Assembly (NCBI GenBank): GCA_965218495.1
Contig: OZ244626.1
Coordinates: forward strand, 1,273,122-1,337,121
Reading direction: 5' to 3'
Source of the DNA: Rhodothermales bacterium
GTDB lineage: Bacteria; Bacteroidota; Rhodothermia; Rhodothermales; Bin80
Length of the DNA stretch: 64,000 nucleotides
Below are positions 13,990 to 38,374 of the stretch, piece after piece. How positions within the stretch are numbered: the first letter of the stretch is position 1; the number at the start of each line of letters is the position of its first letter. The notes beneath the pieces were generated by a model. The model was not told the DNA's origin, searched no databases, and saw nothing but the letters and a program-made list of their open reading frames with translations. Position numbers and translations under genes: made by a program.

Positions 13990-14340
13990 AGATCGCGGCA
14001 GTGAAGCTGCTGGCAAAGGATCTTGGTATGGCTCCCGCCTGCAAGGTCGTAGGTATCCCTCGTTCGACCTACTACTACAGCTTACAGGTGCCGGCACGCA
14101 CGCCGCGGAAGCAGCGGCGTGGACGAAGCCTTCGCCAATTGCCAGTAGCGCAACGAGCGGAGATCCGCGCACTGTTGAACTCGGAGCGGTTCAGGGATCT
14201 GCCCCCACGGCAGATCTATGCCACGCTCCTGGACGAAGGCACCTATGTGTGCCATTGGCGCACGATGTACAACATCCTCCACGAGTACGACGAAGTGCGA
14301 GAGCGCCGCAATCAACGTGTTCATCCCCCGTACAAGAAGC
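13926..14340 (+). pseudogene. IS3-family orfB, N-terminal part
   Basis: ACKVVGIPRSTYYY...RAEIRALLNSERFRDLPPRQIYATLLDEGTYVCHWRTMYNILH...HPPYKK, then broken by the IS256-like insertion. The reading resumes as PELLATVPNKVWS*DITKL at 17012. Confidence 0.7.
13935..13941 (+). promoter_or_regulatory. A6G slippery heptamer (IS3-type -1 frameshift signal), relic
   Basis: AAAAAAG lies at the orfA/orfB overlap. It is in X XXY YYZ register with the frame that is -1 to orfB, but not with the frame of the present orfA body. Confidence 0.4.
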
Positions 14341-14660
14341 GGAACGGGATTGCACATTTTTAAGTTGGGTTTCGGCAGCTTCTGCCGAGATGGGCCCTCA
14401 AAGTAGATATCTTTTGGCAATGGATTGCGCTACGGGCCGAGTGTGTGGGTGCAAATGGGACGGTGCAAGCTTATATGGGCCCAATTGCGTGCTCGCACGC
14501 GGATTTTCGGGCGTAGGCAGGCTCGTGGAGTGACTTTCCGGGCATGATATCCCGCAGGTATCCTCTGATTGCACGCGTAAGCGGCGATCTTGGCAGGGTG
14601 CAGCGCCTCAGAGCGTCCAGACAGCTGCGGGTTTTGCGTTATGCCAGCGTCAGCAGCGCG

Positions 14661-15965
14661 CTACTGCGCGCGGCATCCAGCGGCAGGTGTTGCCTTTGCA
14701 GCCCTTTGGGGCTGGCAGACCGAATCCCCACTAACCCATCGACCCCCGGAGGTGCTCAGGACCTTGGTCAGCTCCTTCATGTCCTCCCGGCGTATCGGCT
14801 TCAGATTCGACTCGTACTGCATGAATATCGCCCCGCACCAGCGCTGACGCATCCCCGATGACCTCCAGCGCTTCACGTTCCGTGATCGGTTCGCAATAAT
14901 GCTGTTGAGGTTCTCGATGATGTTCGTCGTCTTCAGACTGTCTCTGACAGCCTGGTTCCGCACCCCCAACCGGTGAAGTGTCAGCGTATCCTCCAAACCC
15001 TCCTCCAGACTGCGTGCGGCTTTCGGGCACGACCGCTGCAGCGCTTCATGCAGCGACACAAGCGCCGCCCGTGCCTCCGCGTACGTGGGTAGCTCCCAAG
15101 CCGCCTGAAGCCGACGCTTCATATGCGTGGCCGCTGGCTCGCTTTTGATGTGACGCGTCACATTGGTACGCTTGTGCCATTGGCAGCGCTGGAATACGAC
15201 CGCATCCCCAAACACCGCGCCGATCCCCTTGCGAAGCCCGCGGCTGCCGTCCACCTGTACCAACAGCTTGTCGGTATGGGTGAAGCCCCGATGCAACAGA
15301 TCCTGCAACAGCGATTCCACCTGCGCACTGTTCTCGGTACGGCTTTCCGCAAAGCCCAGGACGACCTTCTCGCCCTCGGTCGTGATGCCCATCGCTACGA
15401 TCATCTGCATATCGGCCAGATACTTGCCATCAAGCAGGAGCACCGCAAAGGTGTGCTGATCGAAGCGGCGCGTCTCAAATGCCTTCAGTAGCGCTGCCGT
15501 CTGCGTCATGAAGGCGTTGCCTATGCTGCTGGCACTCAACCCCATACTATCGGTGAAGACTTGGGCCGCCTGCCTGTAATTGCGCCGCGAGAGTCCACAC
15601 AGCAACCCCCTGGTCACGCTTTCCCGGTCCATAAGCCCACGCTTGCGCAAGAGGCGGTACGTTTGCAGAGGACGCTCCTTTCGGGTTCGTACATTCCGCA
15701 CGCGCGGAACGCGGACCGCAATGCGCTCCAAACCGACGCGGATGGAACCCGGATTCGTCCCCCAGCGCTGAAAGCCGGTCTTACGGTGCTTCCCACGTGC
15801 GCCGCAAATGAAGCGGGCTTCGGCTTCCATGACCCATGTGGCCATCTTGGTAAGAAGATCATCGAGATATCCAAGGCAGCTGGCCAGGCCGATGAAATTC
15901 CTTTGCGCAAGCCCGCGAAGGTCCTCGATGAGTGATTGATCCAGCATAGGGGTATGGGTCATCAT
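14661..15965 (-). CDS. IS256 family (Mutator-type) transposase
   Basis: 434 aa with LLLDGKYL...VAMGITTEGEKVVLGF...LLVQVDGSRGLRKGIGAVFGDAVVFQRCQWHKRTNV, the IS256 DDE blocks. Confidence 0.9.
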   Translation of the reverse strand: MMTHTPMLDQSLIEDLRGLAQRNFIGLASCLGYLDDLLTKMATWVMEAEARFICGARGKHRKTGFQRWGTNPGSIRVGLERIAVRVPRVRNVRTRKERPLQTYRLLRKRGLMDRESVTRGLLCGLSRRNYRQAAQVFTDSMGLSASSIGNAFMTQTAALLKAFETRRFDQHTFAVLLLDGKYLADMQMIVAMGITTEGEKVVLGFAESRTENSAQVESLLQDLLHRGFTHTDKLLVQVDGSRGLRKGIGAVFGDAVVFQRCQWHKRTNVTRHIKSEPAATHMKRRLQAAWELPTYAEARAALVSLHEALQRSCPKAARSLEEGLEDTLTLHRLGVRNQAVRDSLKTTNIIENLNSIIANRSRNVKRWRSSGMRQRWCGAIFMQYESNLKPIRREDMKELTKVLSTSGGRWVSGDSVCQPQRAAKATPAAGCRAQ

Positions 15966-16930
15966 ACGGCGTTGAGGTTGATGAGAATCTCACGAAGTTG
16001 TGGCAGATAGGCCGCATGGGCCACACGGCGCAGCTGAGCCTCGTGTTCCAACAGTGCCAGTGCCATCTGTTCGCGTCGCTGGAAAACGGCGCTGGCCGGG
16101 GTCTGCAACCTGCGACTGATGGCATCCATGAAGCGCATCACGCGCAGCCCTCTGTCGAGCTTGAGCAGCATGCCCGTGCGTTGAATCGTCAGAGATTGCT
16201 CCAGGCCCTCCCACAGAACCTTCGCTGCGGACCGATTGACGCGCGTCAAGTCCTGGTGAATACGGGTGAGTGCGCGTTCAGCTTCCCGGGCATCGAACCC
16301 ATTCCATGCCTGGCGGAGGCGATTGCGATACACAGGAACAAGGTCTTCCGGAAGACCACAGGTGACTTGATCCAATAGCGTATTGAGACAGCGCTGTATA
16401 GCGACCCTGGGGCCGAACACCTGGCGCACCGCCGATTGCAGTCCCGTACTGCTGGGCAGCACACAGAGCAGCCCGTCGGCGGCCGAAAGACCACGATCGG
16501 ACAGCGACTGCACAAAGGACGTAAGAGCAGAGACGTTCTCAGGGTAGCACGCTATAAGGCCAAGTATGCGGCGATAGCCCGTGATGGTCAGACCCGCTCC
16601 AAGAACGATGTTAACGCCGCGTGGGCACAGCCCGCGCAGCCAAATCGCAACGATCGGGTCGTCTTGCAGACTGCGCGAATGCAACAGCTGCCACGCTTCA
16701 TTCAACTGCGCCGAGTCCGGCTTTGTGTCCTGGGCCGCAGCAGAAGCCTTGATCACTACGGGCGGTGGCACCGGCTGCTGATGCGCTACCGGAATGGGCC
16801 AGTCAGTGGTCAATTGTTGCAGTATGTGCGTGCAGAGCTTCATCAGAAGCCGCCGCGAGTCACCGGAGGGATTGATCTGGGCGTCTGCAGGCGCCTCAGC
16901 CCTCCCCAAAACAGGCTGTGAGGGGTTCAT
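15962..16930 (-). CDS. IS256-transposase-like paralog lacking the catalytic acidic residues
   Basis: 322 aa that align by eye to the transposase core (IWLRGLCP...LGAGLTITGYRRILGL...LCVLPSSTGLQSAVRQVFGPRVAIQRC). R/P replace the D residues, and QRCxWHKxxN is degenerate. The stop overlaps the transposase ATG (ATGA at 15962-15965). Confidence 0.75.
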   Translation of the reverse strand: MNPSQPVLGRAEAPADAQINPSGDSRRLLMKLCTHILQQLTTDWPIPVAHQQPVPPPVVIKASAAAQDTKPDSAQLNEAWQLLHSRSLQDDPIVAIWLRGLCPRGVNIVLGAGLTITGYRRILGLIACYPENVSALTSFVQSLSDRGLSAADGLLCVLPSSTGLQSAVRQVFGPRVAIQRCLNTLLDQVTCGLPEDLVPVYRNRLRQAWNGFDAREAERALTRIHQDLTRVNRSAAKVLWEGLEQSLTIQRTGMLLKLDRGLRVMRFMDAISRRLQTPASAVFQRREQMALALLEHEAQLRRVAHAAYLPQLREILINLNAV

Positions 16931-17265: not shown

Positions 17266-17361
17266 TAACCCGGATAAATCACCCGGGTGCGAAGAATTGG
17301 AACCCAAGCCCCACGTAAGTGTATGATTAATAATCATTTATAACCATCCTGTGCACTGCGC

Positions 17362-17724
17362 GTGAACAACACAGACTGTCATACTGAAGAGCTTCGTTTC
17401 GAGGACTTGGGGCGGCGTAAAGTGGTCGGAAAGTTCGACGGCGGCCCTATGTCCTCGGACGCAGGTGTTCTCTTGTTGCGGGAGGCCGACCGGATGTTCG
17501 ACGTCATAGGCCGTTTTGCCGCCTGCTTCACCGACCACCGTGATCCCAGCAGGGTCGAGCATACCGTGGAGGCGATGCTCAGGCAACGTGTCTACGCGAT
17601 ATGCTTGGGCTACGAAGACGTGAACGACCATGACCGTCTGCGGGACGATCCCGTGTTGGCCATGGGCGTGGGCTGCGAAGATGTAATAGGTGCGCACCGG
17701 GCACGGGAGCGCGACCAGGGACAT
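17362..17724 (+). CDS. IS1380 family transposase, exon 1 (121 codons)
   Basis: FDGGPMSSDAGVLLLREADRMFDVIGRFAACFTDHRDPSRVEHTVEAMLRQRVYAICLGYEDVNDHDRLRDDPVLAMGVG is the hallmark IS1380 N-terminus. The frame ends at the codon boundary before GTGTG. Confidence 0.8.
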
Positions 17725-18409
17725 GTGTGCCACGTAGTGGCGCGAAAGTGATGTTCTTTAACATAGCTTGAGTGTTGCGTAACTGCATTGAGGATGGAGG
17801 TAGGTCCTCCGCAGCCGCTGTGCAGGCGGAGGCTGCAAACCACCCACTGCTGCTGGGCTTTAAGGGTCTGGTGGTGAGCGAGCTGGGAAAAGGCGGAGCT
17901 ATGACTCTGTCAGGTGTGGATCGTAGAGTCGAACGCAAGTGAACCGCTGACTAAGTGTCGAAAGGTCTTAGACGATGTCAAAACCGGGGTTTATGTCCTG
18001 CTCCGGGACGAGGTCGGGGGCGACCTGCTTATTGCCCGATCGGCATCCGGCATGGAGGCGGCGAGAATGCGATCTGGGCCTCAATGCGGAACGTGGGAAC
18101 CTGTCGGGGCGATGCAAAGGGAGTGTCACAAGTGGAAGTCCCACAAGTGATTGAGTACCAATGCGCCCCACGGGGGCGGATCGGCTTGTAGTAGCGATGA
18201 AACGGGGTAATGCCCGTGGAGCGAAGAGGCCGACTCGGCTGGCTGACTGGATGAGGCAACCGCGTTGCGGGAGGACCTCACCTGCGAAGCAAGGGCTTGG
18301 TCGTTGGCTGGTCCAACGGCGGAGTGGGCCGAGAAGAGCCGTATGAGGCGAGAGTCTCACGTACGGTTCCGTGAGGGCCTGGGGGTGAAATTCCCCCGGG
18401 CTACTCGAC
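17725..18409 (+). mobile_element. ORF-less group II intron (intron Y, 685 nt)
   Basis: 5' GTGTG; domain V GAGCCGTATGAGGCGAGAGTCTCACGTACGGTTC at 18336-18369; domain-VI-like hairpin GGGCCTGGGGGTGAAATTCCCCCGGGCTACTCGAC with an unpaired A 7 nt from the end. No RT ORF, and the flanking exons join in frame. Confidence 0.8.
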
Positions 18410-19501
18410 CCGCTGGCGGGTTCGAGCACACTGAACCGACTGGAGCTCGGCTCCAAAGGAGGGGCCGCATCGCATAGGTACAAGCGCATCGTAGCGGACC
18501 CTGAAAAGATCGACACCATGCTCGCGGACTTGTTCATGGATGTAACGGGCGAGGAGCCAGAGCATATCGTGTTGGATCTCGATGCTACCGATGACGCGAT
18601 TCACGGCCAGCAGGAGGGGCGCTTCTTTCATGGTTACTATGGCCACTACTGCTACTTACCGCTGTACATCGTTAGCGGAAAGCATGTGTTGACCTCTCGT
18701 TTGCGCCCCTCCAACGTGGACGCATCAAAGGGTGCCATAGAGGAGTTAGCGCCGGTGGTAGCGCGTATCCGTGCGAGGTGGCGGCCGCACGTGCCGATCT
18801 GGGTTCGTGGAGACGCAGGCTTTTGCCGCGATGATATCATGGCATGGTGCGAAGCACAGGGCCTGCACTATATCTTTGGTATGGCTCGCAATGCGCGACT
18901 GAAACGCATCGTTGAGGAGGCTATGGAGCAGAGTCAGGCCACCTGCGAGGCCAGCGGGCAGCCTTCGCGGCGCTTCCGCAGCTTCGAGTACCAGACGAAG
19001 GACAGCTGGAGCTGTGCTCGGCGCGTGATAGCCAAGGCGGAATGGCTGCCTGGACCGCGCGGCTATAACGCGCGATTCGTGGTCACCAATTTCAGCGAAG
19101 ACGCGTACGACGCGCGCACGCTATACGAAGATTTGTATTGCGCGCGTGGAGACATGGAGAACCGGCTCAAGGAGCAGCAGCTTACCCTGTTCGCTGACCG
19201 CACCTCTACGTCCATGATGGAGAGCAACCAGTTGCGCCTGTACTTCTCTACGGTCGCCAACACCCTGATGACCATCATCAAGACCTTTGGCTTGCAGGGC
19301 ACCGCGATGGCGCAGGCGCAGTGCGCTACTATCCGTGTGCGGCTACTGAAGATCGCAGCACTGGTGGTGGTAAGCGTACGCCGAGTCCGCCTGCTCTTGC
19401 CCGAGGCCTATCCCTGGCAGCAACTGTTCGCGCGCGTGCTAAGCAACCTGCGCGGCGCTGTGCACACCACCCAGGTCGGCGCGCGCGCCTCACCTTCATA
19501 G
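18410..19501 (+). CDS. IS1380 family transposase, exon 2 (363 codons + stop)
   Basis: PLAGSSTLNRLELGSKGGAASHRYKRIVADPEKIDTMLADLF...IVLDLDATDDAIHGQQEGRFFHGYYGHYCYLPLYI...RLRPSNVDASKG...VRGDAGF. The frame is open from 18410, the same frame as ORF 18518-19501. Confidence 0.85.
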   Translation, partial: PLAGSSTLNRLELGSKGGAASHRYKRIVADPEKIDTMLADLFMDVTGEEPEHIVLDLDATDDAIHGQQEGRFFHGYYGHYCYLPLYIVSGKHVLTSRLRPSNVDASKGAIEELAPVVARIRARWRPHVPIWVRGDAGFCRDDIMAWCEAQGLHYIFGMARNARLKRIVEEAMEQSQATCEASGQPSRRFRSFEYQTKDSWSCARRVIAKAEWLPGPRGYNARFVVTNFSEDAYDARTLYEDLYCARGDMENRLKEQQLTLFADRTSTSMMESNQLRLYFSTVANTLMTIIKTFGLQGTAMAQAQCATIRVRLLKIAALVVVSVRRVRLLLPEAYPWQQLFARVLSNLRGAVHTTQVGARASPS

Positions 19502-21305: not shown

Positions 21306-21553
21306 TACCTAGTGATTGCCCGAAAAAGGCCTATTGGGAGCAATATGCGGGCAGATTGTGGATGGGCGGTAAGCCTGTAGTCGCGGTCAGGGGTGTGCGC
21401 AAGGCGCGCAGCCCCCGAATATGAGTGGATTCGGCACAAATCCGTGGCCTTCAGCCAGCTTTTCATGCCATTGCACTACAAAGAGGATATAGGTTTGCGC
21501 TCTCCCCATTGCAAGGAGTCTGGCTTGCTCCCGTGACGGCGCTTGGTAGGGCC

Positions 21554-22036
21554 TTACTGCGCCCTACTGCGTGCCTGGTGCCACTTTCGTCGGCGCGCTT
21601 CCTTCTGCTTCAGAACCTGACCTATGCGGTGCACATTGGTGGCCACCACTACCAGTGCCAGCGTCCTGTCGAAGCCGGTCTTGCCATGGGTGCGCACTAG
21701 TGCCATCCCCCGGTGATGGAGGTTATTGATCGCCGACTCTACGGCCGGGTGTTGACGCCGGGCTGCCACGAAGTCCGGATGGGTCTCCCGTTCGCGGTCC
21801 GCTTCACGGAGCCGCCCCTTTCGGGGCATCACGTTTAGGTCCAACAACTTGTCAAGCTGCTCGCGATTCTCTGGCGTGTAAAACCCCTTGTCCATACTGC
21901 ATGATGCCAGCGCCGGGTAGCGCCGCTTCGCCTCTGCAAGGAACGGCACGATCATGTCCTGGTCGCCACCTTCGTGTTGCACGTAGTGGCGCAGAATGAA
22001 TTGGTGCTGATCCTCCAGCACGCACACCGGTACCCC
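21554..22036 (-). CDS. ISNCY-like transposase, exon 2 (160 codons + stop)
   Basis: GVPVCVLEDQHQFILRHYVQHEGGDQDMIVPFLAEAKRRYPALASCSMDKGFYTPENREQL...HPAVESAINNLHHRGMALV is the C-terminal DDE part. The N-terminal 207 codons of ORF 21554-22657 are intron read-through. Confidence 0.8.
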   Translation of the reverse strand, partial: GVPVCVLEDQHQFILRHYVQHEGGDQDMIVPFLAEAKRRYPALASCSMDKGFYTPENREQLDKLLDLNVMPRKGRLREADRERETHPDFVAARRQHPAVESAINNLHHRGMALVRTHGKTGFDRTLALVVVATNVHRIGQVLKQKEARRRKWHQARSRAQ

Positions 22037-22704
22037 ATCCCGGTAGCCCCCAGGTTTCCCCGGGGGCCCCGGACAGATCCGGACGTGCGCGCTAACGCAT
22101 CCGGCTCCTCCCTTGGGTCGCGCTGCCGCGCATGACGTTAGCAGGTCGGCAAGCCGACCCGCAGCCGTAACCGATTCATCCCTGGGACGCGCAAAATCCG
22201 GCACTGAGTCCGGTACGTGTGGGACTGCACGATTTCCCCTTGGGTGCGACGCTTCGCTCCACTGACTCCGCCACGAGGGCACCCCCGCTTTGTTCGTCGG
22301 CTTCACAGCTACGTATCGTCGCATCTGACTTCTCCTTGCCGTACGTCCTCCGCTCGGCTTTCGCCTTGGCTTTGGCGGCCCCGCCCGTAGCGCTGGGCAA
22401 CAAGAAGATCTCCCAGGTCCCAGCAGGATATGTACATGCGTCCATGGGGTCCCGGACACCGTGGGCCTGTCCGCCGTCTCACCATAACGATGACGGACAT
22501 GTTGCCTTCGACCGAGCTGAAAGCCTCGGCGACCCAGATTACATGTTTTTCGGTGCTCAATAACCCTGGCCACACGCACCGCTACCGACGCTTCGCGCCC
22601 ACCCTCACGGGTGGCCACGCACGGCTCGCGGAGATATGTACCTGGTTTCAGTTTCATAACACGGGACTTTCACCCGCTATATCCTGCCAGTTAGCCTGGC
22701 GCAC
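22037..22704 (-). mobile_element. ORF-less group II intron (intron X, 668 nt)
   Basis: On the minus strand: 5' GTGCGCCAGGCTAACTGGCAGG...; domain V-like GAGCCGGATGCGTTAGCGCGCACGTCCGGATC (22076-22107); domain-VI-like CCGGGGCCCCCGGGGAAACCTGGGGGCTACCGGGAT ending ...AT. No RT ORF, and the exons join in frame. Confidence 0.75.
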
Positions 22705-23646
22705 CAACTCTGCCATCACGCCCGCCTTCCCTTTGTCGATCCAGCGCGTGTGGGGCTCATGCACGGAGAAGAGCTTCTGGCCGTGCGGAATCTTCTCGCC
22801 CTTGATCAAACGGCGCGACACCTGGTCTATCAGCTGCTCTCCAGTCCGCAAATACCACGACACCTCCGCGCTTTCAACATCGTTTTGCCTCAATATCGCC
22901 TGCGTGGCCGCTGCCTTCGACACGATAGTGCGGCAAAGTGCCAGGTAGTTTGCCACTTTCGACGTACTACGCCACTGCCGGGAAGTGCGCACGCGATAAA
23001 AGGCGCGCTCCATTTTCTTGATCCAGGCCTGCGACTTGCGCCAGCCCGCTATCGCATGCTGTTGGCAAAGACGCGCCAGCTTCCTGATCAGACGGCGCAG
23101 CGCATCCCACAGCAAACGGACATCGGTGGGCCACTCCACATGGGTCTTCGCAACCGCTGAGTCGGCCCGGCAGTGAAGCGGATCCGATGACCTGTGCTTC
23201 AACAGCTGATGCCCACGGGCCACCACCACCGCATTGATCTGCCGCAGCGCTTCCTCGGTAAGCAGACGCACGTTGTCAATAACGGTCTGCAGGCGATACT
23301 GGTGCTTATCTCCAAAATCTGCATGCCCCAGCATCTGGCGCAACGCCGTGTGAAAGTTCGCCAATTCCACCAGACGGTCGAAGTCGCAGTCGAGCGCCTT
23401 CTGCAGCGTGCCCAGCACGAAGATCCGCCACAGGCACAGGCCCGGGCGACCACGCCGCAAATTGACCTTCGCGCCTAACTGCTCCCGCAGAATCGCGAAC
23501 ACCCGCTCGCGGGTCTCGCGGTGCGTGAAGATGTCCTGCAGTCCACGCAGTACGGCCGGAATATCGTCTCTGGACCGAGCGTCAAAGCTGATCTCTCCAA
23601 TGGGCGTGTGCCCAAGCTCAAACTGTGGCTCGAAGATCGCGCGCAT
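22705..23646 (-). CDS. ISNCY-like transposase, exon 1 (314 codons)
   Basis: MRAIFEPQFELGHTPIGEISFDARSRDDIPAVLRGLQDIF...RADSAVAKTHVEWPTDVRLLWDA...FSVHEPHTRWIDKGKAGVMAEL. The last codon TTG ends at 22705, directly before GTGCG. Confidence 0.8.
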
Positions 23647-23888
23647 GGCAGTAAATCGGGCGAATGTTGGGGCAGAAGCGTACTAATCACGCCAATAACG
23701 GTACTAAGATCGGAAAACGGCGCAACATTCGCTAAAACAATGCAGGCAGCCGTTGGGGAAACTGCCCCGAAAACAGCCGCTCGACACTCCAAAATGCCCG
23801 ATTTTCCGCCGCACGCGCCCGTACATCCGCCCTATGCGCCCAAGACTGCCGGTCTGCAGAGCCGATCAGGCATTTTTCGGGCAAGCAC

Positions 23889-23986
23889 TACCTATGCGAT
23901 GCGGCCCCTCCTTTGGAGCCGAGCTCCAGTCGGTTCAGTGTGCTCGAACCCGCCAGCGGGTCGAGTAGCCCGGGGGAATTTCACCC
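23889..23986 (-). other. IS1380-B exon 2 proximal 71 nt plus the last 27 nt of intron Y
   Basis: The reverse complement is identical to copy A 18383-18480 (GGGTGAAATTCCCCCGGGCTACTCGAC|CCGCTGGCGGG...CGCATAGGTA). It is bounded by the IS4-like element on one side and the ISNCY-like element on the other. Confidence 0.8.
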
Positions 23987-25487
23987 ATAAGCGCTAACTT
24001 GTTTAAATACTGGGGAAATAGCGTTCAACTTGGTTAATTCTAGCTCTTGGAGGCGCAGCCAACATTCCCGAGATTTCGGGCCATTGCTCGATCATCTCGG
24101 CCAAGGAGAACCCTGGCTCAATCGCCTGCCCGACTTGGTTGAGGGCGAATTTGAATTCCCTCCATGTACTGGGTGTGCGCCCGCACATCATAGCCCCAGG
24201 GGGAAAGTGTCCGTGCGTGACGGACGATCTTTTCGGTCAACAGCGCGACCAGTAACTTCCCGTATAGCCAAGCTTTCGCGCTCTCGTCATCGAATTTCGG
24301 CAGGTGGCCCAGCTGGGCTAACGATTTGAAACGCTTAAACACCAGTTCAACCTGCCAGCGTAGTCGGTACCACTCGAGCACAGCGGTCGCTGAAAACTTC
24401 TCCGTTGGGAAGGTGGTGAATAAGATGACGTACCGGGCGTAACGCAAGGTTTCTTCCCGTGGCTTCTTTCCCTTCCGCTGAGCAGTCTGATAAATCTTGG
24501 TATGCGCCTCTTCCATCGCTTCATCCGTTTTACGAAGCGCACAGATACGGCCCTTCACGGGGGTCTCTGCCTTGACGGCTGCGGTCCAGACTCCCACAGC
24601 CCCAGCCTGCAGTAAGGACTCCACCGACGCTAACAGGTCAATGGGCTGGCCGGATTCCGTCTCAAAGCGCAGCGCACCTGTGTTCACGCGCACCGTCACG
24701 TAGCCGCCGGCTGTCTCCACATGTTGAATTCCAGAACCGGTCGCATAGCCGCGGTCCGCCAGTATGTAGTCACCCGCACGGACGGGAAATTGCTTGAATG
24801 ATTCACCCGTGCCCGCCCCCTTCGTTCCAGTTAACTTGAAAAAATCACAGCCTAGTGAAGGCAGGGTAACACTGTAATGCAACCGCCACATTGATCCCGT
24901 GCGGCCAGGCTCCCGTACTACGGTAGCATCGAACGCCCGTACTTGCAGCCCCTCGCTGGCAGATACCTCAATGCCATGCTCCTTAAATAGCTCCATGCAT
25001 AATGCGTAGAGCCAGTTCCGTGACTTCTGCAGCCGCTTGAGCAGGGCTACGTCCGATAAGTCGGCCAGATGAGCCTGGCGCGCTCGCACGACGGTCTCCC
25101 GCAGTGAGTGCCCGCATCTCCAAGTGGATCAGCAGCGTCCGCAAGAGGTTTTCCGGTGACTTATCCTTACGCAGCCCGCGCAGTGCGCCGGTATTCACGG
25201 CCAGTTGCTGCCAATTCGCAGGCAAGAACGACGCCAACACGCCCCAGTCCTTGTCAGCTGGCGCTCTGGTAACGGTTCCCTTCATCAGGCGTCAATCGTT
25301 TAGCGACGAAGTAGCGACATATTTATCCCGATCATGGGTGCACAGGATGGTAGATGGCCCGACCTTTGTGATTCCCAGTGCACGAAATTGTCTACTGCAA
25401 GCGGCATCGGTGTTCCCGGTTACCTCGACTCCAGGTAAACCAAAGCAACATACAGGAATCGTGTCAGATAAACAAGTTAGCGCTTAT
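23987..25487 (-). mobile_element. IS4-family insertion sequence (~1.5 kb)
   Basis: Perfect terminal inverted repeats of about 19-21 bp ((CC)ATAAGCGCTAACTTGTTTA at 23985/23987 and its reverse complement ending 25487/25489). One transposase gene. Confidence 0.85.
24118..25285 (-). pseudogene. IS4 family transposase, one frameshift near 25090-25125
   Basis: ORF 24983-25285 (MKGTVTRAP...LLRTLLIHL) continues in another frame as ...GHSLRETVVRARQAHLADLSDVALLKRL... (24118-25089). DDE context DATVV / LADRGY and the signature YRLRWQVELVFKRFK (Y-2-R-3-E-6-K). Confidence 0.8.
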
Positions 25488-25488
25488 G

Positions 25489-25812
25489 GCGGTACGCCCC
25501 CGGCTGGCCCGCCTTGGGAATACGGTGCGCGCGGACCGGCTGGGGCGTGTAGGTGCCGTCTTTGAGCTCCTGATGCATACGCTCCAGGTTCGCTTCAAGC
25601 GATGCCTCGAACGTCGCCAGGGTCTCTCCGTCCACACCGCCCGCCCCCCGTCCTTGCTTCACCTTCTTCCAGGCCAACTCCAGATTCTTCCGCTTGTACA
25701 CCTTGTCCACTAACGAGTGGACCTTCCGCTCACCTGTTGGATTGAGCCAATGTGACAGTCTCCTGGGCCGATGATGTACGGGTCTTTCACTAAAGGAACT
25801 GTTCCACCTCAT
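25489..25812 (-). pseudogene. group II intron reverse transcriptase/maturase, N-terminal fragment only
   Basis: SLVDKVYKRKNLELAWKKVKQGRGAGGVDGETLATFEASLEANLERMHQELKDGTYTPQPVRAHRIPKAGQPGAYR (RT domains 0-2), then runs into the IS4 terminal repeat (..HKR*). The start codon is uncertain. Confidence 0.75.
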
Positions 25813-25926
25813 CGACTTTACTCGCTGATCGCAATCTCTCCATTCCAAACCACCTTTGCCGACTGCCTTCCCCGACCCACCCGGCCGCCGCTTGCGCGGT
25901 CACCCGACTTTCGACGGGCTTGTGGT
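25767..25926. repeat. 160-bp direct repeat, copy 1 (inside intron Z)
   Basis: Identical by eye to 26135-26294 (offset 368 bp). Lower-identity homology continues ~55 bp further down (25712-25766 vs 26080-26134). Confidence 0.85.
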
Positions 25927-26134
25927 GTCGGGTCGGAGGAGGCGCCCCGAAGGGCTAACCTCCGTCCGCCGCTCAAACGGCTCGTACGGTTTTCCCGTAA
26001 GCCGCTTTCACAAAGGTGTCTCGTGGAGGGTTCAAGGAAGGTTTCAGTGGAATCAATCGTACATGGCCGTACTCCACTGTGGTGTAGACCTTCCTCTCCC
26101 CTGTTGGATTGTGCCCAATGCGACAGTCTCCTCA

Positions 26135-26294
26135 GCCGATGATGTACGGGTCTTTCACTAAAGGAACTGTTCCACCTCATCGACTTTACTCGCTGATCGC
26201 AATCTCTCCATTCCAAACCACCTTTGCCGACTGCCTTCCCCGACCCACCCGGCCGCCGCTTGCGCGGTCACCCGACTTTCGACGGGCTTGTGGT
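26135..26294. repeat. 160-bp direct repeat, copy 2 (inside intron Z)
   Basis: See 25767-25926. This repeat explains the duplicated ORF prefixes MEWRDCDQRVKSMRWNSSFSERPVHH in ORFs 25477-25848 and 25818-26216. Confidence 0.85.
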
Positions 26295-26804: not shown

Positions 26805-27272
26805 ACTACAAGCCGATCCGCCCCCGTGGGGCGCATTGGTACTCAATCACTTGTGGGACTTCCACTTGTGACACTCCCTTTGCATCGCCCCGACAGGTTC
26901 CCACGTTCCGCATTGAGGCCCAGATCGCATTCTCGCCGCCTCCATGCCGGATGCCGATCGGGCAATAAGCAGGTCGCCCCCGACCTCGTCCCGGAGCAGG
27001 ACATAAACCCCGGTTTTGACATCGTCTAAGACCTTTCGACACTTAATCAGCGGTTCACTTGCGTTCGACTCTACGATCCACACCTGACAGAGTCATAGCT
27101 CCGCCTTTTCCCAGCTCGCTCACCACCAGACCCTTAAAGCCCAGCAGCAGTGGGTGGTTTGCAGCCTCCGCCTGCACAGCGGCTGCGGAGGACCTACCTC
27201 CATCCTCAATGCAGTTACGCAACACTCAAGCTATGTTAAAGAACATCACTTTCGCGCCACTACGTGGCACAC
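26805..27272 (-). mobile_element. intron Y, 5' 468 nt (copy in IS1380-B)
   Basis: The reverse complement is colinear with 17725-18192 with no indels. One substitution is inferred from the T/I difference between the shadow ORFs 17914-18150 and 26847-27083. Confidence 0.85.
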
Positions 27273-27635
27273 ATGTCCCTGGTCGCGCTCCCGTGCCCGG
27301 TGCGCACCTATTACATCTTCGCAGCCCACGCCCATGGCCAACACGGGATCGTCCCGCAGACGGTCATGGTCGTTCACGTCTTCGTAGCCCAAGCATATCG
27401 CGTAGACACGTTGCCTGAGCATCGCCTCCACGGTATGCTCGACCCTGCTGGGATCACGGTGGTCGGTGAAGCAGGCGGCAAAACGGCCTATGACGTCGAA
27501 CATCCGGTCGGCCTCCCGCAACAAGAGAACACCTGCGTCCGAGGACATAGGGCCGCCGTCGAACTTTCCGACCACTTTACGCCGCCCCAAGTCCTCGAAA
27601 CGAAGCTCTTCAGTATGACAGTCTGTGTTGTTCAC
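27273..27635 (-). pseudogene. IS1380 transposase (copy B), exon 1
   Basis: Translation is identical to copy A exon 1 (ORF 27246-27635 equals ORF 17362-17751). The gene is non-functional because the downstream intron and exon 2 are disrupted. Confidence 0.85.
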
Positions 27636-27731
27636 GCGCAGTGCACAGGATGGTTATAAATGATTATTAATCATACACTTACGTGGGGCTTGGGTTCCAA
27701 TTCTTCGCACCCGGGTGATTTATCCGGGTTA

Positions 27732-28265: not shown

Positions 28266-31200
28266 ATGAAAGGACTCAGACTGACCGCTATCGCCGTAGT
28301 GGCGATCATGTTTTTACCGCTTGCCATCACGCTATTGCCGGACGCTCCGACTCCCGATTCGGTGTCAGATCCTCTGGCATTCCGATCCGAGAAGTCCCGA
28401 ATGGTGTCAAGCCCGCAGGGCCACCCGAACCTGTTTTTCGAGTATTTCAGAGACATCAGGGCATCGGAAGACGGTGAAGTCGAGTACCCGCCGGGCTATC
28501 GGTATACTGAGTATAAGAAGGCAATGGCAACTGCGAAGACTTCTGGAGGCACGCTCAACTGGGTGGAGCGAGGCCCTGGCAACGTTGGCGGACGAACGCG
28601 TCCTCTACTAGTCGATCCGGATGATCCAGACTTGCACACGTGGTGGGCTGGTTCCGTGGCCGGCGGCCTGTGGAAGACCATTAACGGAGGGTTGGCATGG
28701 CAGTACCAAACGGATGACCTGCCAGTCATGTCGGTCACCAGCCTGGCGATGGCGGAGAGTAATCACGACGTCATCTACATGGGCACCGGTGAAGGCTATG
28801 GCAATATTGACGGCGTAGATGGTAATGGAATCTTTAGGTCCACTGACAGAGGAGTGACTTGGGAGCACTTGGCCGCTACCACCGCGAACGCTGATTTCCG
28901 ACATGTAAACCGGTTGGCCGTTGATTCTGCGAATCCGGATGTGGTAGTGGCCGCTACCGGTGCAGGCATATTTCGCACCACCGATGGAGGCATGTCCTGG
29001 ACCGAAGTATACGAGGGGCCGGGGCGCGTGCAGGACTTGCGCGCACAGCCGGGCAACTTCAGTATGCAGATAGCTGGTGTAGACGGTAATGGAATACTCT
29101 ACTCCACAGACGCTGGCATGACGTGGGAATTCTCCTCCGTAGTCTGGACTAGCGGCTTAGGTCGCATTGAACTAGCATATTCAACGTCCCATCCCAGTAT
29201 CGCGTATGCTGCCGTCGACGGAAGCACCGCTGCACTCTATCGAAGTAGCGATGGTGGCGTAAATTGGGCACCGACCGTAGATTCATCCCCCTTCCCCTTT
29301 TCTTGGCTCGGGTTCCAAGGCTGGTACGATAACACGCTGGCGGTGCATCCATTTAAGCCTGACACGGTGTTTGTTGGAGGAATATTTTTGTGGCGAAACA
29401 TTCTATCCGGGGAAACCATAACCGTGTCTGGACCTTCCGAATTCAGCTACGGTGGCGCTGAGTCGTGGCTTAATTTCGTTAACTTTGGTGCGTCTGCTTT
29501 TGGCGGCACCCTGTCTTACCTGGATCTAGATGCCATTGATGTGTCAGAGGCGGACTACAACAACATTGAGATCCGATTTGGTCAAGGAATGCAGAAGGCG
29601 CACCGCTTCTGGGTTTCCGAAACCGCTGGCACATTCGGAAATGGCGGCTCAGGCATCCCGTTCAGCGAGTTCATGTACGCGGACTACGTTGACGTTCCAT
29701 TGCAAGTGTGGGATATCGATAACAACCGTCAGCTGAATTTCTCCTTCCGCGATCAAGCCGACGATGGCGAATTCAACCTGATTGAATTCTTCTCGTCAGA
29801 GGATCCGGGCACGCGCGATACGCAGAGTCGCGAGTACATGTTCATTCACAAATCTGATTACGACGCAACTAATCCACAGGACAGCATCGCCCAAGATGGC
29901 GGCCTGGTGCATGGAATGCTGTACTTCATGTGGCCTACGCTTCTTGACTCCACTGCCACATGGGACCCGATGAACCTGCCTAACCAGACCCTTTCAATTT
30001 CGTATAGCGTTACCGAAGGCCTTGGTCGAACACTAGACGGTGAAATCGATCCTAACAGCAACACGCACGTGGATCACCACAATATATTGCCAATCCCAAT
30101 TAACGCTGCACAAAATGAGTTCTGGATCTTAAATGCCAACGACGGTGGCGTAGCAGTGTCTACGGACGGCGGCCAGTCTTTCAGAGAAGCGGATAACGCA
30201 TTTGCGGGCTACAACACCGCGCAATTCTACGGAGTGGCGAAAAAGCCCGGTAGCCCCATTTACATCGCCGGATCGCAGGATAACGGAACATGGCGGTCTT
30301 TCGGCAATCCAAATAACAGGCGTGGGTGGATATTTGCGCTTGGCGGCGACGGTTTTGAGACGATATGGCACGCTACTGATCCAGACAGGATTATGGGATC
30401 GATTCAATTCAATAATATTTTGCGAACTGTCAACGGTGGCGTCAGCTGGCAGTCCACAGCGGCGGGTGGGCTCGGAGCCGGGCAGTTTATTACCACACTT
30501 GCTAGCTCCGATATGGCACCCAACAATGTATACACTAGCAATGCCAATGGCGTGGCGTATTCCAGAGATTTTGGAGCGACCTGGACCTTGACCTCAATCA
30601 CTGAAAGCTGGGGGTTTTGGTCAGGTGGCAAAGTTAGGGTATCTATTGCGGACTCGAACGTGGTTTGGGCAGGATATGGCTTGGACTCCAGCCCCAACCG
30701 TAAGCTGCACATCTCGAGGGATCAAGGGGTGTCGTTCGAAGCGGTGGCCTTGCCTACCATGAATCGGGCGCCCGAGACGATTATTTCCGGGCTGGCTACG
30801 CATCCTACCGAGAGCGGCACTGCGTATGCGCTGTTCTCACGCTACGGCTACGCAAGGGTCCTGGAAACAAAGGATTACGGGCAGACGTGGACTGATCTTT
30901 CAAGCTTTGATACGACGGGAGCAAGCACGAATGGCTTTCCTGATGTGGCCGTTCACGACCTGCTGGTGATGCCGCATGCAACGAATGTGTTGTGGGCAGG
31001 CACTGACATTGGCCTTTTCAAGTCTAAGAGCTACGGCAAGGAGTGGAACTACGCGCACAACGGCCTGCCGGCAGTCTCCGTTTGGCGAATGAAGTTTCGC
31101 GATGATGAGGTCATCCTAGGTACGCATGGCCGTGGCGTATGGACCGTGCCGGCTAGCGAGATTGACGTCGCAATAGAGGAGGAGTCGGCGGAGTTGCCGT

Positions 31201-31466
31201 CTGGATTCAGCCTCGCTCCGAACTATCCGAATCCCTTTAACGCCTCCACCACCATCCAATTCAAGGTGCCGAGCGAAGCACGAGTACGACTGACTGTCTT
31301 TGATGCAATCGGACGGAAGGTGTCCGTGCTGACCGACAGGGTTTACCCTCCTGGAGAGTACGACTTGAACTGGAACGCCAACGACTTCGCGAGCGGTGTC
31401 TACTTCTATCGCATGGAATCAGAAGGCAAGCTCATCCACACGCACAAGATGACACTGGTGAAGTAG
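28266..31466 (+). CDS. secreted Asp-box/BNR-repeat (sortilin/VPS10-like beta-propeller) protein with T9SS C-terminal sorting domain
   Basis: 1066 aa with a signal-like N-terminus. Repeated SxDxGxTW-type boxes (STDRGVTWE, TTDGGMSWT, STDAGMTWE, SSDGGVNWA, STDGGQSF, SRDFGATWT, TKDYGQTWT). The C-terminus NYPNPFNASTTIQFKVP...VYFYRMESEGKLIHTHKMTLVK matches the Por/T9SS CTD pattern. Confidence 0.85.
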   Translation: MKGLRLTAIAVVAIMFLPLAITLLPDAPTPDSVSDPLAFRSEKSRMVSSPQGHPNLFFEYFRDIRASEDGEVEYPPGYRYTEYKKAMATAKTSGGTLNWVERGPGNVGGRTRPLLVDPDDPDLHTWWAGSVAGGLWKTINGGLAWQYQTDDLPVMSVTSLAMAESNHDVIYMGTGEGYGNIDGVDGNGIFRSTDRGVTWEHLAATTANADFRHVNRLAVDSANPDVVVAATGAGIFRTTDGGMSWTEVYEGPGRVQDLRAQPGNFSMQIAGVDGNGILYSTDAGMTWEFSSVVWTSGLGRIELAYSTSHPSIAYAAVDGSTAALYRSSDGGVNWAPTVDSSPFPFSWLGFQGWYDNTLAVHPFKPDTVFVGGIFLWRNILSGETITVSGPSEFSYGGAESWLNFVNFGASAFGGTLSYLDLDAIDVSEADYNNIEIRFGQGMQKAHRFWVSETAGTFGNGGSGIPFSEFMYADYVDVPLQVWDIDNNRQLNFSFRDQADDGEFNLIEFFSSEDPGTRDTQSREYMFIHKSDYDATNPQDSIAQDGGLVHGMLYFMWPTLLDSTATWDPMNLPNQTLSISYSVTEGLGRTLDGEIDPNSNTHVDHHNILPIPINAAQNEFWILNANDGGVAVSTDGGQSFREADNAFAGYNTAQFYGVAKKPGSPIYIAGSQDNGTWRSFGNPNNRRGWIFALGGDGFETIWHATDPDRIMGSIQFNNILRTVNGGVSWQSTAAGGLGAGQFITTLASSDMAPNNVYTSNANGVAYSRDFGATWTLTSITESWGFWSGGKVRVSIADSNVVWAGYGLDSSPNRKLHISRDQGVSFEAVALPTMNRAPETIISGLATHPTESGTAYALFSRYGYARVLETKDYGQTWTDLSSFDTTGASTNGFPDVAVHDLLVMPHATNVLWAGTDIGLFKSKSYGKEWNYAHNGLPAVSVWRMKFRDDEVILGTHGRGVWTVPASEIDVAIEEESAELPSGFSLAPNYPNPFNASTTIQFKVPSEARVRLTVFDAIGRKVSVLTDRVYPPGEYDLNWNANDFASGVYFYRMESEGKLIHTHKMTLVK

Positions 31467-38100: not shown

Positions 38101-38374
38101 ACTACCAAAGTCATTCAGCTTGGAGCAGAATTACCCGAACCCGTTCAACCCCACGACGACCATCACCTTTTCCGTGCCGGAAGAGGCGCGAGTCAGGCTT
38201 ACGGTGTTTGATGTAATCGGGCGAAGGATAGCAGTCCTAACTGACCAGGCCTATTCGGCGGGCGCTCACGAGTTGAACTGGGATGCCAGCGCTCATGCCA
38301 GTGGCGTTTATTTCTACCGCATGGAGGCCGCAGGCAAGCTGGTCCAGACGCAGAAGATGACACTGGTGAAGTAG
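35120..38374 (+). CDS. secreted Asp-box/BNR-repeat protein with T9SS C-terminal sorting domain (paralog of 28266-31466)
   Basis: 1084 aa, colinear with the first paralog (shared blocks NWVERGPGNVGGRTR, WLGFQGWYDNTLAVHPF, HNGLPAVSV). CTD NYPNPFNPTTTITFSVP...VYFYRMEAAGKLVQTQKMTLVK. Confidence 0.85.
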   Translation: MTNAQRILVAITGLLALPFLIFQLASDDASQAEEPVMPLRVHESPQRSSTAQGHPELFLEVHHDIRASEDGKVDYPMGYQIHEYRKALAASKSAGATLNWVERGPGNVGGRTRAILVDPDDPDMHTWFVGTAGGGLWWTQNRGYSWGYLTDNLPGLAVTTIAMAESNHDILYIGTGEGFGNVDAAGGVGIFKSYDRGQSWEHLLSTATDTLFRYVNRLAVDPTDPHIVVAATNEGIYRTTDGGLLWTEAYASEGRVQDLRAQPGNFNTLIASENPGGILRSMDGGATWTRAIPTSEILGGSLRIELAFSPSNPAIAYASVQQPVGAALLRSDDGGASWKNTRGVGGLGGINWLGFQGWYDNTLAVHPFAPDTVFVGGIVLWRTMMTGDVIDIAEPSNFQGFLPGQTDGIIGYISGLGNYFGFLGTLVLAGFEDAAFSDIESADYSSVEIRFGQGTQMAHRFSSNDSQWQDISCFLDPTNAPVPHARNEYQDYVEVPFTVWDIDTGRQLAVSFRDAARDSTFNLIPFTTTGSCDVVSNEQLFVHKYDYDATVPHDSVAQDGGVTRGMMYMILPFLANSGATWDPDSIPEQTARITFARANGLYARTVDREIDPVPSRAHVDHHSIVPVVPDPGSSDFWILDANDGGVSISTDGGESFLETDFRFAGFNTSQFYGADKAPGIARYVGGTQDNGSWLSYGNPNNRRGWISVPPQADGFEAIWNSRDPNKIMTSWQFNNIMYTHTGGASFIGVTVGFGIFVTSMDSSPHAPDTVYIVAQEGVWRSPDFALTFTLTPIDSAWAPTNIGKVRASSATDTVVWAGYGLDDSPARTLWYSTDAGESFSPSALPTIPNAPQTIISGLATHPAEVATAYALFSRPRRPKILQTTDFGQNWQDISGFSESTDGTSTRGFPDVAVYDLLVMPHAPHVMWAATDAGLFQTKSYGNEWNYAHNGLPAVSVFRLKYRDDEIVAATHGRGVWSVPWGEIDVSIESDDFTELPKSFSLEQNYPNPFNPTTTITFSVPEEARVRLTVFDVIGRRIAVLTDQAYSAGAHELNWDASAHASGVYFYRMEAAGKLVQTQKMTLVK

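Follow-up and report, generated by a model that had tools for sequence, protein, structure and literature searches.

Is a transposase gene that is cut in two by 668 nucleotides a broken gene, or one that can be made whole again at the level of RNA? This question is raised by a 64-kb stretch of contig OZ244626.1 (assembly GCA_965218495.1) from a Rhodothermales bacterium, referred to below as the window, in which a transposase gene of the ISNCY family on the minus strand is interrupted at positions 22704..22037. A preliminary description of this DNA had proposed that the interrupting segment is a group II intron without an open reading frame (ORF); we call this intron Z. Our analysis makes it probable that Z is a structurally intact ORF-less intron, descended by deletion in domain IV from introns that encode a reverse transcriptase (RT), whose splicing, dependent on a maturase supplied in trans, would restore the transposase.

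A group II intron interrupts the transposase gene

What marks the interrupting segment as an intron, and where exactly does it begin and end? On the minus strand, the ORF 23646..22654 reads ...KGKAGVMAEL and then continues into GTGCGCCAGGCTAACTGGCAGG. At its 3' terminus Z reads ...GAGCCGGATGCGTTAGCGCGCACGTCCGGATC TGT CCGGGGCCCCCGGGGAAACCTGGGGGCTACCGGGAT, where GAGCCGGATGCGTTAGCGCGCACGTCCGGATC is followed by a long hairpin and then by AT. The interval 22037..22704 (minus strand; 668 nt, GUGCG...GGGAU) holds no RT ORF, and its termini fit the consensus GUGYG...AY, with GUGCG at 22704-22700 and AU at 22038-22037. The covariance model RF02005 (group-II-D1D4-6) matches 22670-22447 of the minus strand with 161 bits (cut-off, 49; E = 1.7e-46 for the whole window), and this match spans model positions 1-225 of 225, so that the architecture of domains I-IV is present. 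RF00029, the model of domains V and VI, matches 22109-22037 of the same strand with 34.5 bits (E = 7e-5 in a permissive local search of 901 nt). Since the terminus of this match, 22037, is exactly the proposed 3' splice site, the boundary is supported. The exon and intron letters that had been proposed, the length of 668 nt, the A located 8 nt from the end, and the terminal AT all agree with the sequence, and the two covariance models supply the group II match that the proposal called for. No second copy of Z was found within the 64-kb window.

A search with the spliced host protein found an allele that lacks the intron. Its protein (P0001) has 474 amino acids (aa) and is 94% identical to the spliced product, and the allele lies on a metagenome contig of the European Nucleotide Archive (our loci L001 and L002). 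Window positions 23740..22704 correspond to L001 15..1051 (95.9% identity) and window positions 22036..21310 to L001 1051..1776 (93.1%); the allele is without exactly the 668 nt of Z and is otherwise collinear. Its target site is unoccupied, with 30 nt upstream and 11 nt downstream identical to the flanks of Z (GATGGCAGAGTTG|GGGGTACCGGT, also written GATGGCAGAGTTG|GGGGTACC). Intron and exon 2 both start with G, which leaves the boundary formally ambiguous by 1 nt; the GUGCG consensus and the register of the exon-binding site EBS1 (see below) settle it for 22704/22037.

The segment 22704..22037 of the minus strand is a group II intron, far beyond chance. The reading that the interval is something else, an unrelated insertion or a lineage-specific coding insert, has to be regarded as refuted: the covariance match stands at the E value given above, translation of the interval meets multiple in-frame stops, the interval is missing from the 94%-identical allele, none of 17 aligned homologues has an insertion, and the exon-binding contacts covary with the flanks. 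The proposal that Z is unrelated to the other intron of the window, intron Y (see below), was also borne out, as the two match different models (RF02005 versus RF01999) and have no blastn similarity.

The host gene and its insertion sequence

Can the interrupted gene still specify a transposase? Exon 1 (22705..23646, minus strand; 942 nt, codons 1-314) ends with ...GVMAEL, and exon 2 (21554..22036, minus strand; 483 nt including the stop codon) starts with GVPVCVLEDQ.... Each exon is a multiple of three, and together they join as a 474-aa ORF (...GVMAEL|GVPVCVLEDQ...), which upholds the claim that both junctions fall on codon boundaries. The description of the intron as lying "in frame" is correct for the phase of the junctions but not for the intron itself, whose length is 3n+2. 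Read-through from exon 1 meets a stop codon after 16 intron codons, and the product of an unspliced mRNA is therefore 330 aa long (314 exon-1 codons plus 16 intron-encoded residues). Because the unspliced frame stops at this point, the full 474-aa transposase requires the removal of Z.

The assignment of the host as "ISNCY-like" could be made firmer with NCBIfam profile NF033593 (ISNCY transposase), which the gene product matches, in its spliced form only, with 409 bits (cut-off, 325) and without a break over profile positions 1-444. A Pfam search of the spliced transposase returned no match. In an alignment of 17 homologues, taken from 1486 with E <= 1e-10, the junction AEL|GVP falls inside the most conserved motif of the family, KGKAGVxAELGVPVCVLEDQHQFIL. 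All 17 are gap free across AEL|GVP, with no insertion at this point, and none of them contains coding sequence homologous to 22037-22704. Comparison of the split gene with the intron-less allele gives a ratio of nonsynonymous to synonymous substitution rates (dN/dS) of 0.28. This value is consistent with a functional gene, although it includes the period before insertion and is not specific to the time after it. Annotation would otherwise report this transposase as two fragments or a pseudogene, whereas the more accurate description is a gene interrupted by an intron and intact after splicing.

The gene belongs to a complete insertion sequence (IS) of the ISNCY family at 21312..23888 (minus strand), which measures 2577 bp with Z and 1909 bp without it. 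Its terminal inverted repeats (TIRs) of 21 nt each, found by repeat search and confirmed by direct reading, are GTGCTTGCCCGAAAAATGCCT on the left in transposase orientation (23868..23888, minus strand) and GTGATTGCCCGAAAAAGGCCT on the right (21312..21332, plus strand); homology to the intron-less allele L001 stops at this right end. The element is flanked by a 6-bp target-site duplication, TACCTA, at 21306..21311 and 23889..23894. It is nested in the second, inverted copy of an IS1380-family element, and the other IS1380 copy has kept the unfilled site, in which cttgTACCTAtgcgatg occurs once (18475-18480), whereas the interrupted copy has TACCTA on both sides. The order of nesting is thus IS1380 ⊃ ISNCY ⊃ intron Z. 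This nesting goes beyond the preliminary description, as do the shared deletion junction in domain IV and the lack of a maturase gene nearby, both of which are taken up below.

Further intron-bearing copies of the IS were sought with a probe for the junction of exon 1 and intron (ATGGCNGARTTGGTGCGCCAGGC). Its seven metagenome matches (L095-L101) were dismissed as chance, since they are without transposase, intron similarity, or Rfam match and since about seven chance matches are expected (a rough estimate for 21 specified bases). Exact-sequence look-ups of the exon-1 read-through ORF, of MurF, and of leucyl aminopeptidase returned no record.

Recognition of the exons

If Z arrived at this site as a mobile intron, its exon-binding sites (EBS) should match the intron-binding sites (IBS) of the exons. 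A hairpin before GAAGGCAACA presents an 8-nt loop that contains EBS1, 5'-CAGCUC-3' (22514..22519, minus strand; intron nt 186-191). It pairs with IBS1, GAGUUG (22710..22705), at six of six positions, one G-U pair included. An earlier search for exact Watson-Crick complements of the exon found no EBS1, because G-U pairs must be allowed. Across 19 intron/exon pairs, loop positions 3-8 pair with exon positions -1 to -6 in 86 of 114 cells; shuffling the exons gives 51.2 +/- 5.1 (0 of 5000 shuffles reach 86), and shifting the register gives 36-47. When each column of domain I was compared with each flanking position in an unbiased scan, EBS1-IBS1 was the top signal.

Two further contacts carry less weight, as their positions were picked post hoc. 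An EBS2-like ACAUG (22542..22546, minus strand; intron nt 159-163), the second-best run in the same scan, lies opposite exon positions -9 to -13 and pairs in 58 of 95 cells, compared to 36.6 +/- 4.0 in shuffles (0 of 5000 reach it). An EBS3-like C (22454, minus strand; intron nt 251), the best single column against exon position +1, pairs with the first base of exon 2, G (22036); pairing is seen in 17 of 19 copies versus 9.9 +/- 1.8 in shuffles (1 of 5000). A conserved second hairpin loop (CGUUAUGGUGAG) was also considered as an EBS and was rejected, since copies with different exons all have the same loop. From this fit between intron and host site, Z would have entered the sense strand of the ISNCY transposase gene by reverse splicing and retro-insertion, at a site that matches EBS1 (6/6) and EBS3.

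Fold of the ribozyme

Is the ribozyme of Z intact? Domain I extends approximately over 22414..22699 (minus strand; intron nt 6-291), as judged from the RF02005 alignment, the minimum free energy (MFE) fold, and the RNAalifold consensus. Domain V has 32 nt (22076..22107, minus strand), with the AGC triad at 22106-22104, an AC bulge at 22086-22085, and an A opposite the triad G at 22078. Domain VI (22039..22072, minus strand) is a helix of 14 bp with a GAAA loop and a bulged branch-point A, A22044, located 8 nt from the 3' end.

We evaluated the predicted fold on an alignment of the ribozyme parts of 20 sequences; as the structure had itself been obtained from this alignment, the comparison favors it. 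In the consensus fold of 194 pairs, 95.9% of the cells are paired and 101 pairs have changed on both sides, compared to 34-42% paired and 34-39 pairs changed on both sides when the register is slid as a control. Of 183 conserved pairs (those formed in >=80% of the sequences), Z breaks 3. Among the six RT-encoding copies, five break 1-9 of these pairs and the most distant one breaks 19.

Domains V and VI were followed in 26 distinct sequences, where 95% of the cells are paired versus 29-46% in slid registers; such values were not attained in any of 500 shuffles. Eleven pairs have changes on both sides, 3 of 13 in domain V and 8 of 14 in domain VI, and the domain VI helix is paired in 98% of its cells. 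The basal pair of domain VI is C-G in Z alone and G-C (or G-U) elsewhere, which reads as a compensatory double change on the branch that leads to Z. Z is compact and rich in G+C, and its predicted fold is stabler than those of 20 shuffles (z = -2.6, MFE). These data point to a fold that has been kept intact in Z.

Descent and spread of the ORF-less copies

Where does an intron without an RT come from? The contig that carries the intron-less allele also carries a relative of Z (L002) that is 1924 nt long, matches RF02005 with 162.7 bits, contains a 451-aa ORF, and is nested in a Y-type intron. The intron-encoded protein (IEP) of this relative matches RVT_1 with 130 bits and GIIM with 22.3 bits (cut-off, 23), with no match to an HNH/endonuclease domain. 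To follow the lineage more widely, we scanned a genome collection with a motif of domain I, chosen because it is independent of domain V and of ORF content, and obtained at least 92 loci. Among the matches listed are many Rhodothermales metagenome-assembled genomes (MAGs), together with Spirochaetia, Paracoccaceae, Bryobacterales, and other groups. Pairing of 5' and 3' parts in the listed loci gave at least 34 combinations, including at least 13 copies of 645-669 nt, which we take as complete ORF-less introns, and at least 6 of 1912-1924 nt, taken as complete RT-encoding introns.

Domain IV of Z appears to preserve the trace of the lost gene. A remnant of about 27 nt (22164..22190, minus strand) can be aligned with the region around the GTG start of the gene for the 451-aa IEP in L002, and next to it a capped hairpin, GCGGGUCGG-CUUG-CCGACCUGC (22141..22162, minus strand), closes domain IV at the deletion junction, as seen in the domain IV alignment. 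The ORF-less copies share their breakpoints: homology to the full-length introns stops near 535-546 and restarts near 1814-1846. This junction, about 27 nt of ORF start followed by the capped hairpin, is homologous in Z, L072, L087, L020, and the copies of OZ244148.1, and the sub-group changes within the hairpin look compensatory (read by eye and uncounted). Other junctions are seen in L017, in the copies from Spirochaetia, and in the one from Bryobacterales. The idea that all ORF-less copies form one clade proved unsupported, because the junctions in domain IV differ and the neighbor-joining (NJ) tree splits these copies, which together indicate at least three independent ORF losses. By their common junction, Z and the ORF-less copies of Rhodothermales MAGs other than L017 trace to one deletion event. 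Their ancestor was an RT-encoding intron, in which an old deletion in domain IV kept the start of the ORF and closed the domain with a short hairpin.

Could Z instead have arrived at full length, with its RT, and lost the ORF in place? Repeated loss in the wider lineage, evident in the junctions of L017, Spirochaetia, and Bryobacterales and in an NJ tree in which the ORF-less copies are not monophyletic, lends this idea some plausibility. However, the hairpin and breakpoints of the Z junction are shared with L072, L087, L020, and the OZ244148.1 copies, which occupy unrelated sites and differ from Z by 12-26%, and independent deletions that produced the same junction at each site are very unlikely. 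We consider loss in place highly improbable and retain descent from an ancestor that had already lost the ORF.

Has the lineage moved since then? The closest ORF-less relatives of Z among the matches listed, L072 and L087, are 87-88% identical to it, and the three differ in EBS1 loop and host exons. This is most simply explained by movement of the element after the loss of its ORF. A search with MurF places the window in Rhodothermales, with OZ253559.1 as the closest genome (86% protein identity). OZ253559.1 carries a copy of intron nt 1-471 of Z that is 99.4% identical, at an unrelated and apparently non-coding site whose exon matches EBS1 at 4 of 6 positions. An identity so far above the 86% of the housekeeping protein speaks for recent spread. 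This copy is interrupted after nt 471, upstream of domain IV, by a Y-type intron; the junction shared by the older relatives of Z suggests that it too was ORF-less. A match of L072 to window positions 14339-16043 had been considered as synteny with OZ253559.1 and was withdrawn, as it reflects an IS256-family element (95.5% identical between the window and OZ253559.1, L072 1-1706).

Nesting of introns recurs around this lineage. In OZ253559.1, Y-type introns (GTGTGCC...) stand right after Z nt 471 (...CCCAAGGGGAA|) at two places, L082 near 2945 and L009 near 2605, and this position seems to be one to which Y-type introns home repeatedly in Z-type introns. The corresponding site of Z in the window is unoccupied. 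ORF-less Z-type copies are found inside the RT ORFs of other Z-type introns (L017 6716-6072, L076 1855-1193, and L020 7061-7726), and a full-length copy, L071, lies in what by eye is a candidate IS110-type transposase gene. Among the loci listed, the lineage targets mostly other mobile elements. On the contig with the intron-less ISNCY allele, the twintron L002 8141-4407 (minus strand) has an inner Z-type intron at 7713-5790, upstream of the 419-aa IEP gene of the outer Y-type intron. Z itself is not a twintron, as it sits in the exon of an IS transposase gene and not in an intron. Some copies start with GAGCG instead of GUGCG (L002 7713, L023 4683, L076 3883) and one with GAACG (L017 7566); at least two of these four are nested in or abut other introns, and the change may be inactivating or a tolerated variant.

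Can the intron still be spliced?

Several observations weigh against an intron that is intact and spliced with the help of a maturase. Domain V is atypical, with a length of 32 nt rather than 34, a G.A where G-U is usual, and a loop of UAGC instead of GNRA, and at its gathering score (cut-off, 40) RF00029 misses domains V and VI of Z. EBS2-IBS2 is weak in Z (pairing at 3 of 5 positions). The 64-kb window contains no group II RT/maturase gene, and no intact Z-type IEP is present in the four OZ253559.1 loci among the matches listed. The ISNCY element lies in a heap of broken mobile elements, within a disrupted IS1380 copy, and need not be active. In addition, the intron RmInt1 ligates <1% of its exons in vivo (PMC4238363), and a competent intron may therefore mostly silence its host gene.

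Are the deviations in domain V signs of damage? The preliminary description had cautioned that the base opposite the G of the catalytic triad is A. This A is indeed present, but it cannot be taken as a lesion: it is unpaired in 26 of 26 sequences, RT-encoding copies included, and the neighboring pairs covary. The same G.A occurs in domain V of a plasmid intron of Sinorhizobium meliloti that belongs to the RF02005 family (L102 3822-3896, CP140951.1). On these grounds the G.A is a family trait rather than a defect of Z. The other deviations of domain V are also lineage wide, with UAGC or UAAC as the loop, and two helices, a 2-nt bulge, and a basal AGC are present despite them. RT-encoding relatives score 36.0 and 41.1 bits with RF00029, which makes the low score a feature of the class rather than of Z. 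Scores near or below the cut-off (34.5-41 bits) are common to distant RF02005 members, and surveys that rely on the RF00029 gathering score would therefore under-count this family, its ORF-less copies especially. A non-canonical G.A conserved under the catalytic-triad G across the RF02005 family is a concrete, testable point on the catalytic core.

Where could a maturase come from? The only trace of an IEP in the window is a 55-aa fragment (25510-25674, minus strand) that resembles the Y-type IEP. At least five further loci, which belong to a minimum of four other Rhodothermales assemblies, have intact Z-type IEPs, and in OZ244148.1 (Rhodothermales) ORF-less and IEP-encoding copies occur side by side. 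Bacterial ORF-less introns are almost always accompanied by related IEPs (PMC4424553), and the ORF-less introns of Thermosynechococcus, which go back to one deletion, are spliced and mobilized by IEPs in trans (PMC2882425). Of six class IIE ribozymes assayed in vitro, three showed catalytic activity (PMC3753933).

One alternative deserves serious attention, and we would give it perhaps a minority share: Z is real and looks intact, yet it is effectively a dead insertion, with no compatible maturase or negligible splicing, and the ISNCY element is an immobile relic. The missing IEP genes in the window and in the listed OZ253559.1 loci fit this alternative, as does the position of the IS in a disrupted IS1380 copy beside IS4, IS256, and a broken second intron Y. 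So do the <1% ligation of RmInt1 cited above and the behavior of class IIE introns, whose splicing in vitro was hydrolytic only and was not seen in 3 of 6 (PMC3753933). Because RmInt1 in ISRm2011-2 shows that splicing of an intron in a transposase gene can be poor enough for the intron mainly to limit the IS (PMC4238363), this alternative keeps real weight. It is harder to reconcile with the clean 474-codon frame and its dN/dS of 0.28 (which includes time before the insertion), with the 180 of 183 conserved pairs that are kept, and with the compensatory change in domain VI that is Z's own. With MurF only 86% identical between the two genomes, the 99.4%-identical copy at another site points to very recent activity of the sub-lineage, and the coexistence of ORF-less and IEP-encoding copies in other Rhodothermales genomes, such as OZ244148.1, also speaks against a dead end.

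Might Z do without any protein and splice itself in vivo, as has been suggested for the Clostridium tetani intron C.te.I1? Some class IIE ribozymes self-splice in vitro after deletion of the ORF (PMC3753933), one bacterial ORF-less intron is known from a genome without an IEP (PMC4424553), and Z is compact, G+C rich, and more stably folded than its shuffles. However, self-splicing of IIE introns in vitro needed 500 mM monovalent salt and 100 mM Mg2+ (PMC3753933). The start of the ORF retained in domain IV, which in IIA introns is a critical IEP-binding site (PMC2882425), suggests by analogy a dependence on protein, and the retargeting of ORF-less copies implies that some RT reverse transcribed them. 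We therefore consider protein-free splicing improbable, well below the dead insertion.

Taken together, these data favor an intact ORF-less intron that is served in trans. As Z encodes no maturase, its splicing and further mobility would rely on a related IEP supplied from elsewhere in the genome. We infer from the behavior of the family, that is, the co-occurrence of ORF-less introns with IEPs (PMC4424553) and splicing in trans in Thermosynechococcus (PMC2882425), that Z is spliced in this cell and that this genome contains such a maturase.

A broader proposal can be offered tentatively, with slightly less than even confidence. Z may be one copy of a long-lived non-autonomous lineage, in which one ORF deletion in a class-E-like intron whose IEP lacks an endonuclease (En) domain produced an element of about 668 nt. 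This element would since have diverged by up to about 25%, changed its EBS1 repeatedly, and moved between Rhodothermales genomes, spliced and mobilized by related IEPs in trans. If this is correct, the lineage contradicts the view of bacterial ORF-less derivatives as rare and short-lived (PMC4424553), and such elements may have been under-counted in part because domain V of this class scores near or below the RF00029 cut-off. Z would then also act as a maturase-dependent gate on the synthesis of the ISNCY transposase.

Surroundings of the element

The second intron of the window, intron Y (17725-18409, plus strand; 685 nt, GTGTG...CUACUCGAC), matches RF01999 and RF00029 and splits an IS1380-family transposase gene with exon ORFs 17362-17751 and 18518-19501. 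The claim that the window holds two introns in two different transposase genes is therefore sound, with Z in ISNCY and Y in IS1380. The IS1380 element with intron Y is present in two inverted copies, whose arms 17266-18192 and 26805-27731 are identical over 927 nt (100%). The second copy of intron Y runs from 27272 downward on the minus strand and is broken up by later insertions.

In the remains of this second intron-Y copy lies an IS4-family element (23985-25489) with perfect 21-nt TIRs (CCATAAGCGCTAACTTGTTTA) and a 323-aa transposase ORF (24118-25089, minus strand); in L021, a Rhodothermaceae MAG, a Z-type intron has its domain VI interrupted by the same IS4-family end. The RT fragment at 25510-25674 (minus strand) is 42% identical to the Y-type IEP of L002. 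Beside it is a 368-nt tandem duplication (25706-25926 and 26073-26294; 180-nt copies, 98% identity). Together, fragment and duplication are probably debris of a longer, ORF-containing intron Y.

Elsewhere in the window are an ISL3-family transposase gene (1545-2816, plus strand) and an IS256-family transposase split in two ORFs (14661-15965 and 15962-16930, minus strand). Three large proteins (28266-31466, plus; 35120-38374, plus; 59040-62510, minus) end in type IX secretion C-terminal sorting domains or PorZ-like ends, and two of the three have a glycosyl-hydrolase-like region. Housekeeping genes (murF, leucyl aminopeptidase, pyruvate dehydrogenase E1) follow from about 40 kb onward. The type IX/PorZ-like proteins fit a chromosome of the Fibrobacteres-Chlorobi-Bacteroidetes (FCB) group (Rhodothermota).

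Comparison with known systems

To which class of introns does Z belong? The lineage is IIB-like, and its IEPs have no endonuclease domain. It probably represents bacterial class E, an assignment that comes from inference rather than from IEP phylogeny, since the introns reported for S. meliloti are restricted to classes C, D, E, and G (PMC5894124) and since the other intron type of this study has a 419-aa IEP of the size of that of RmInt1. No mapping of the Rfam D1-D4 families to intron classes was found in the literature searched. The S. meliloti plasmid intron of the RF02005 family is not RmInt1; its IEP is 57% identical to the Z-type IEP, and the intron shares the G.A of domain V. Class E introns (IIE; for example, Cl.be.I2 and S.me.I4) have, like the Z type (as tested on the L002 relative), an IEP with RT and X/maturase domains but without DNA-binding (D) and En domains.

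Introns in IS transposase genes are a classic pattern, known from RmInt1 and from other class D introns in transposases and integrases (PMC4238363). RmInt1 of S. meliloti (class D, IIB3) resembles Z in being IIB-like, in belonging to a lineage whose IEPs lack an endonuclease domain, and in being located in the sense strand of a transposase gene of an IS. Each of the two introns contains in-frame stops, so that the transposase can be made only after splicing (PMC4238363, PMC5894124). In the ISRm2011-2 transposase gene, these stops make splicing essential for mobility of the IS (PMC4238363). Unlike Z, RmInt1 has its own 419-aa IEP and is autonomous. RmInt1 is of class D in an IS630-Tc1 element, whereas Z is of the RF02005 family, probably class E, in an ISNCY element, and the behavior of RmInt1 was demonstrated by experiment while that of Z is read from sequence.

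The closest parallel for the ORF-less group is TeI3 of Thermosynechococcus elongatus (CL/IIB1). As in the group of Z, its copies go back to one deletion with shared breakpoints and remnants of the ORF in domain IV, they carry different EBS at different sites, RT-encoding relatives coexist with them, and twintrons occur (PMC2882425). The TeI4 IEP has D and En domains, whereas the Z-type IEP has neither, and the phylum differs. Within one genome, TeI3/4 copies share 85-100% identity, compared to 74-88% for the Rhodothermales ORF-less copies of several genomes. Mobilization in trans by driver IEPs was demonstrated for TeI3 and is proposed for Z.

The ORF-less and RT-encoding introns of Methanosarcina resemble the Z lineage in their mutual nesting (PMC4424553), which here takes the forms of Z in Y (L002), Y in Z (L082 and L009), and ORF-less Z-type copies in Z-type RT ORFs (L017, L076, and L020). 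In Methanosarcina, however, the hosts are archaea and the introns lie in introns, whereas Z of the window lies in a protein-coding IS gene of a bacterium. No report of group II introns in Rhodothermales (Rhodothermota) was found in the literature searched. The general understanding of how group II introns function is unchanged by these data. Z combines features known from other systems in another intron family (RF02005) and another phylum, and it adds a non-cyanobacterial case of ORF-less copies with one deletion junction and different target specificities in a class of introns whose IEPs lack the En domain.

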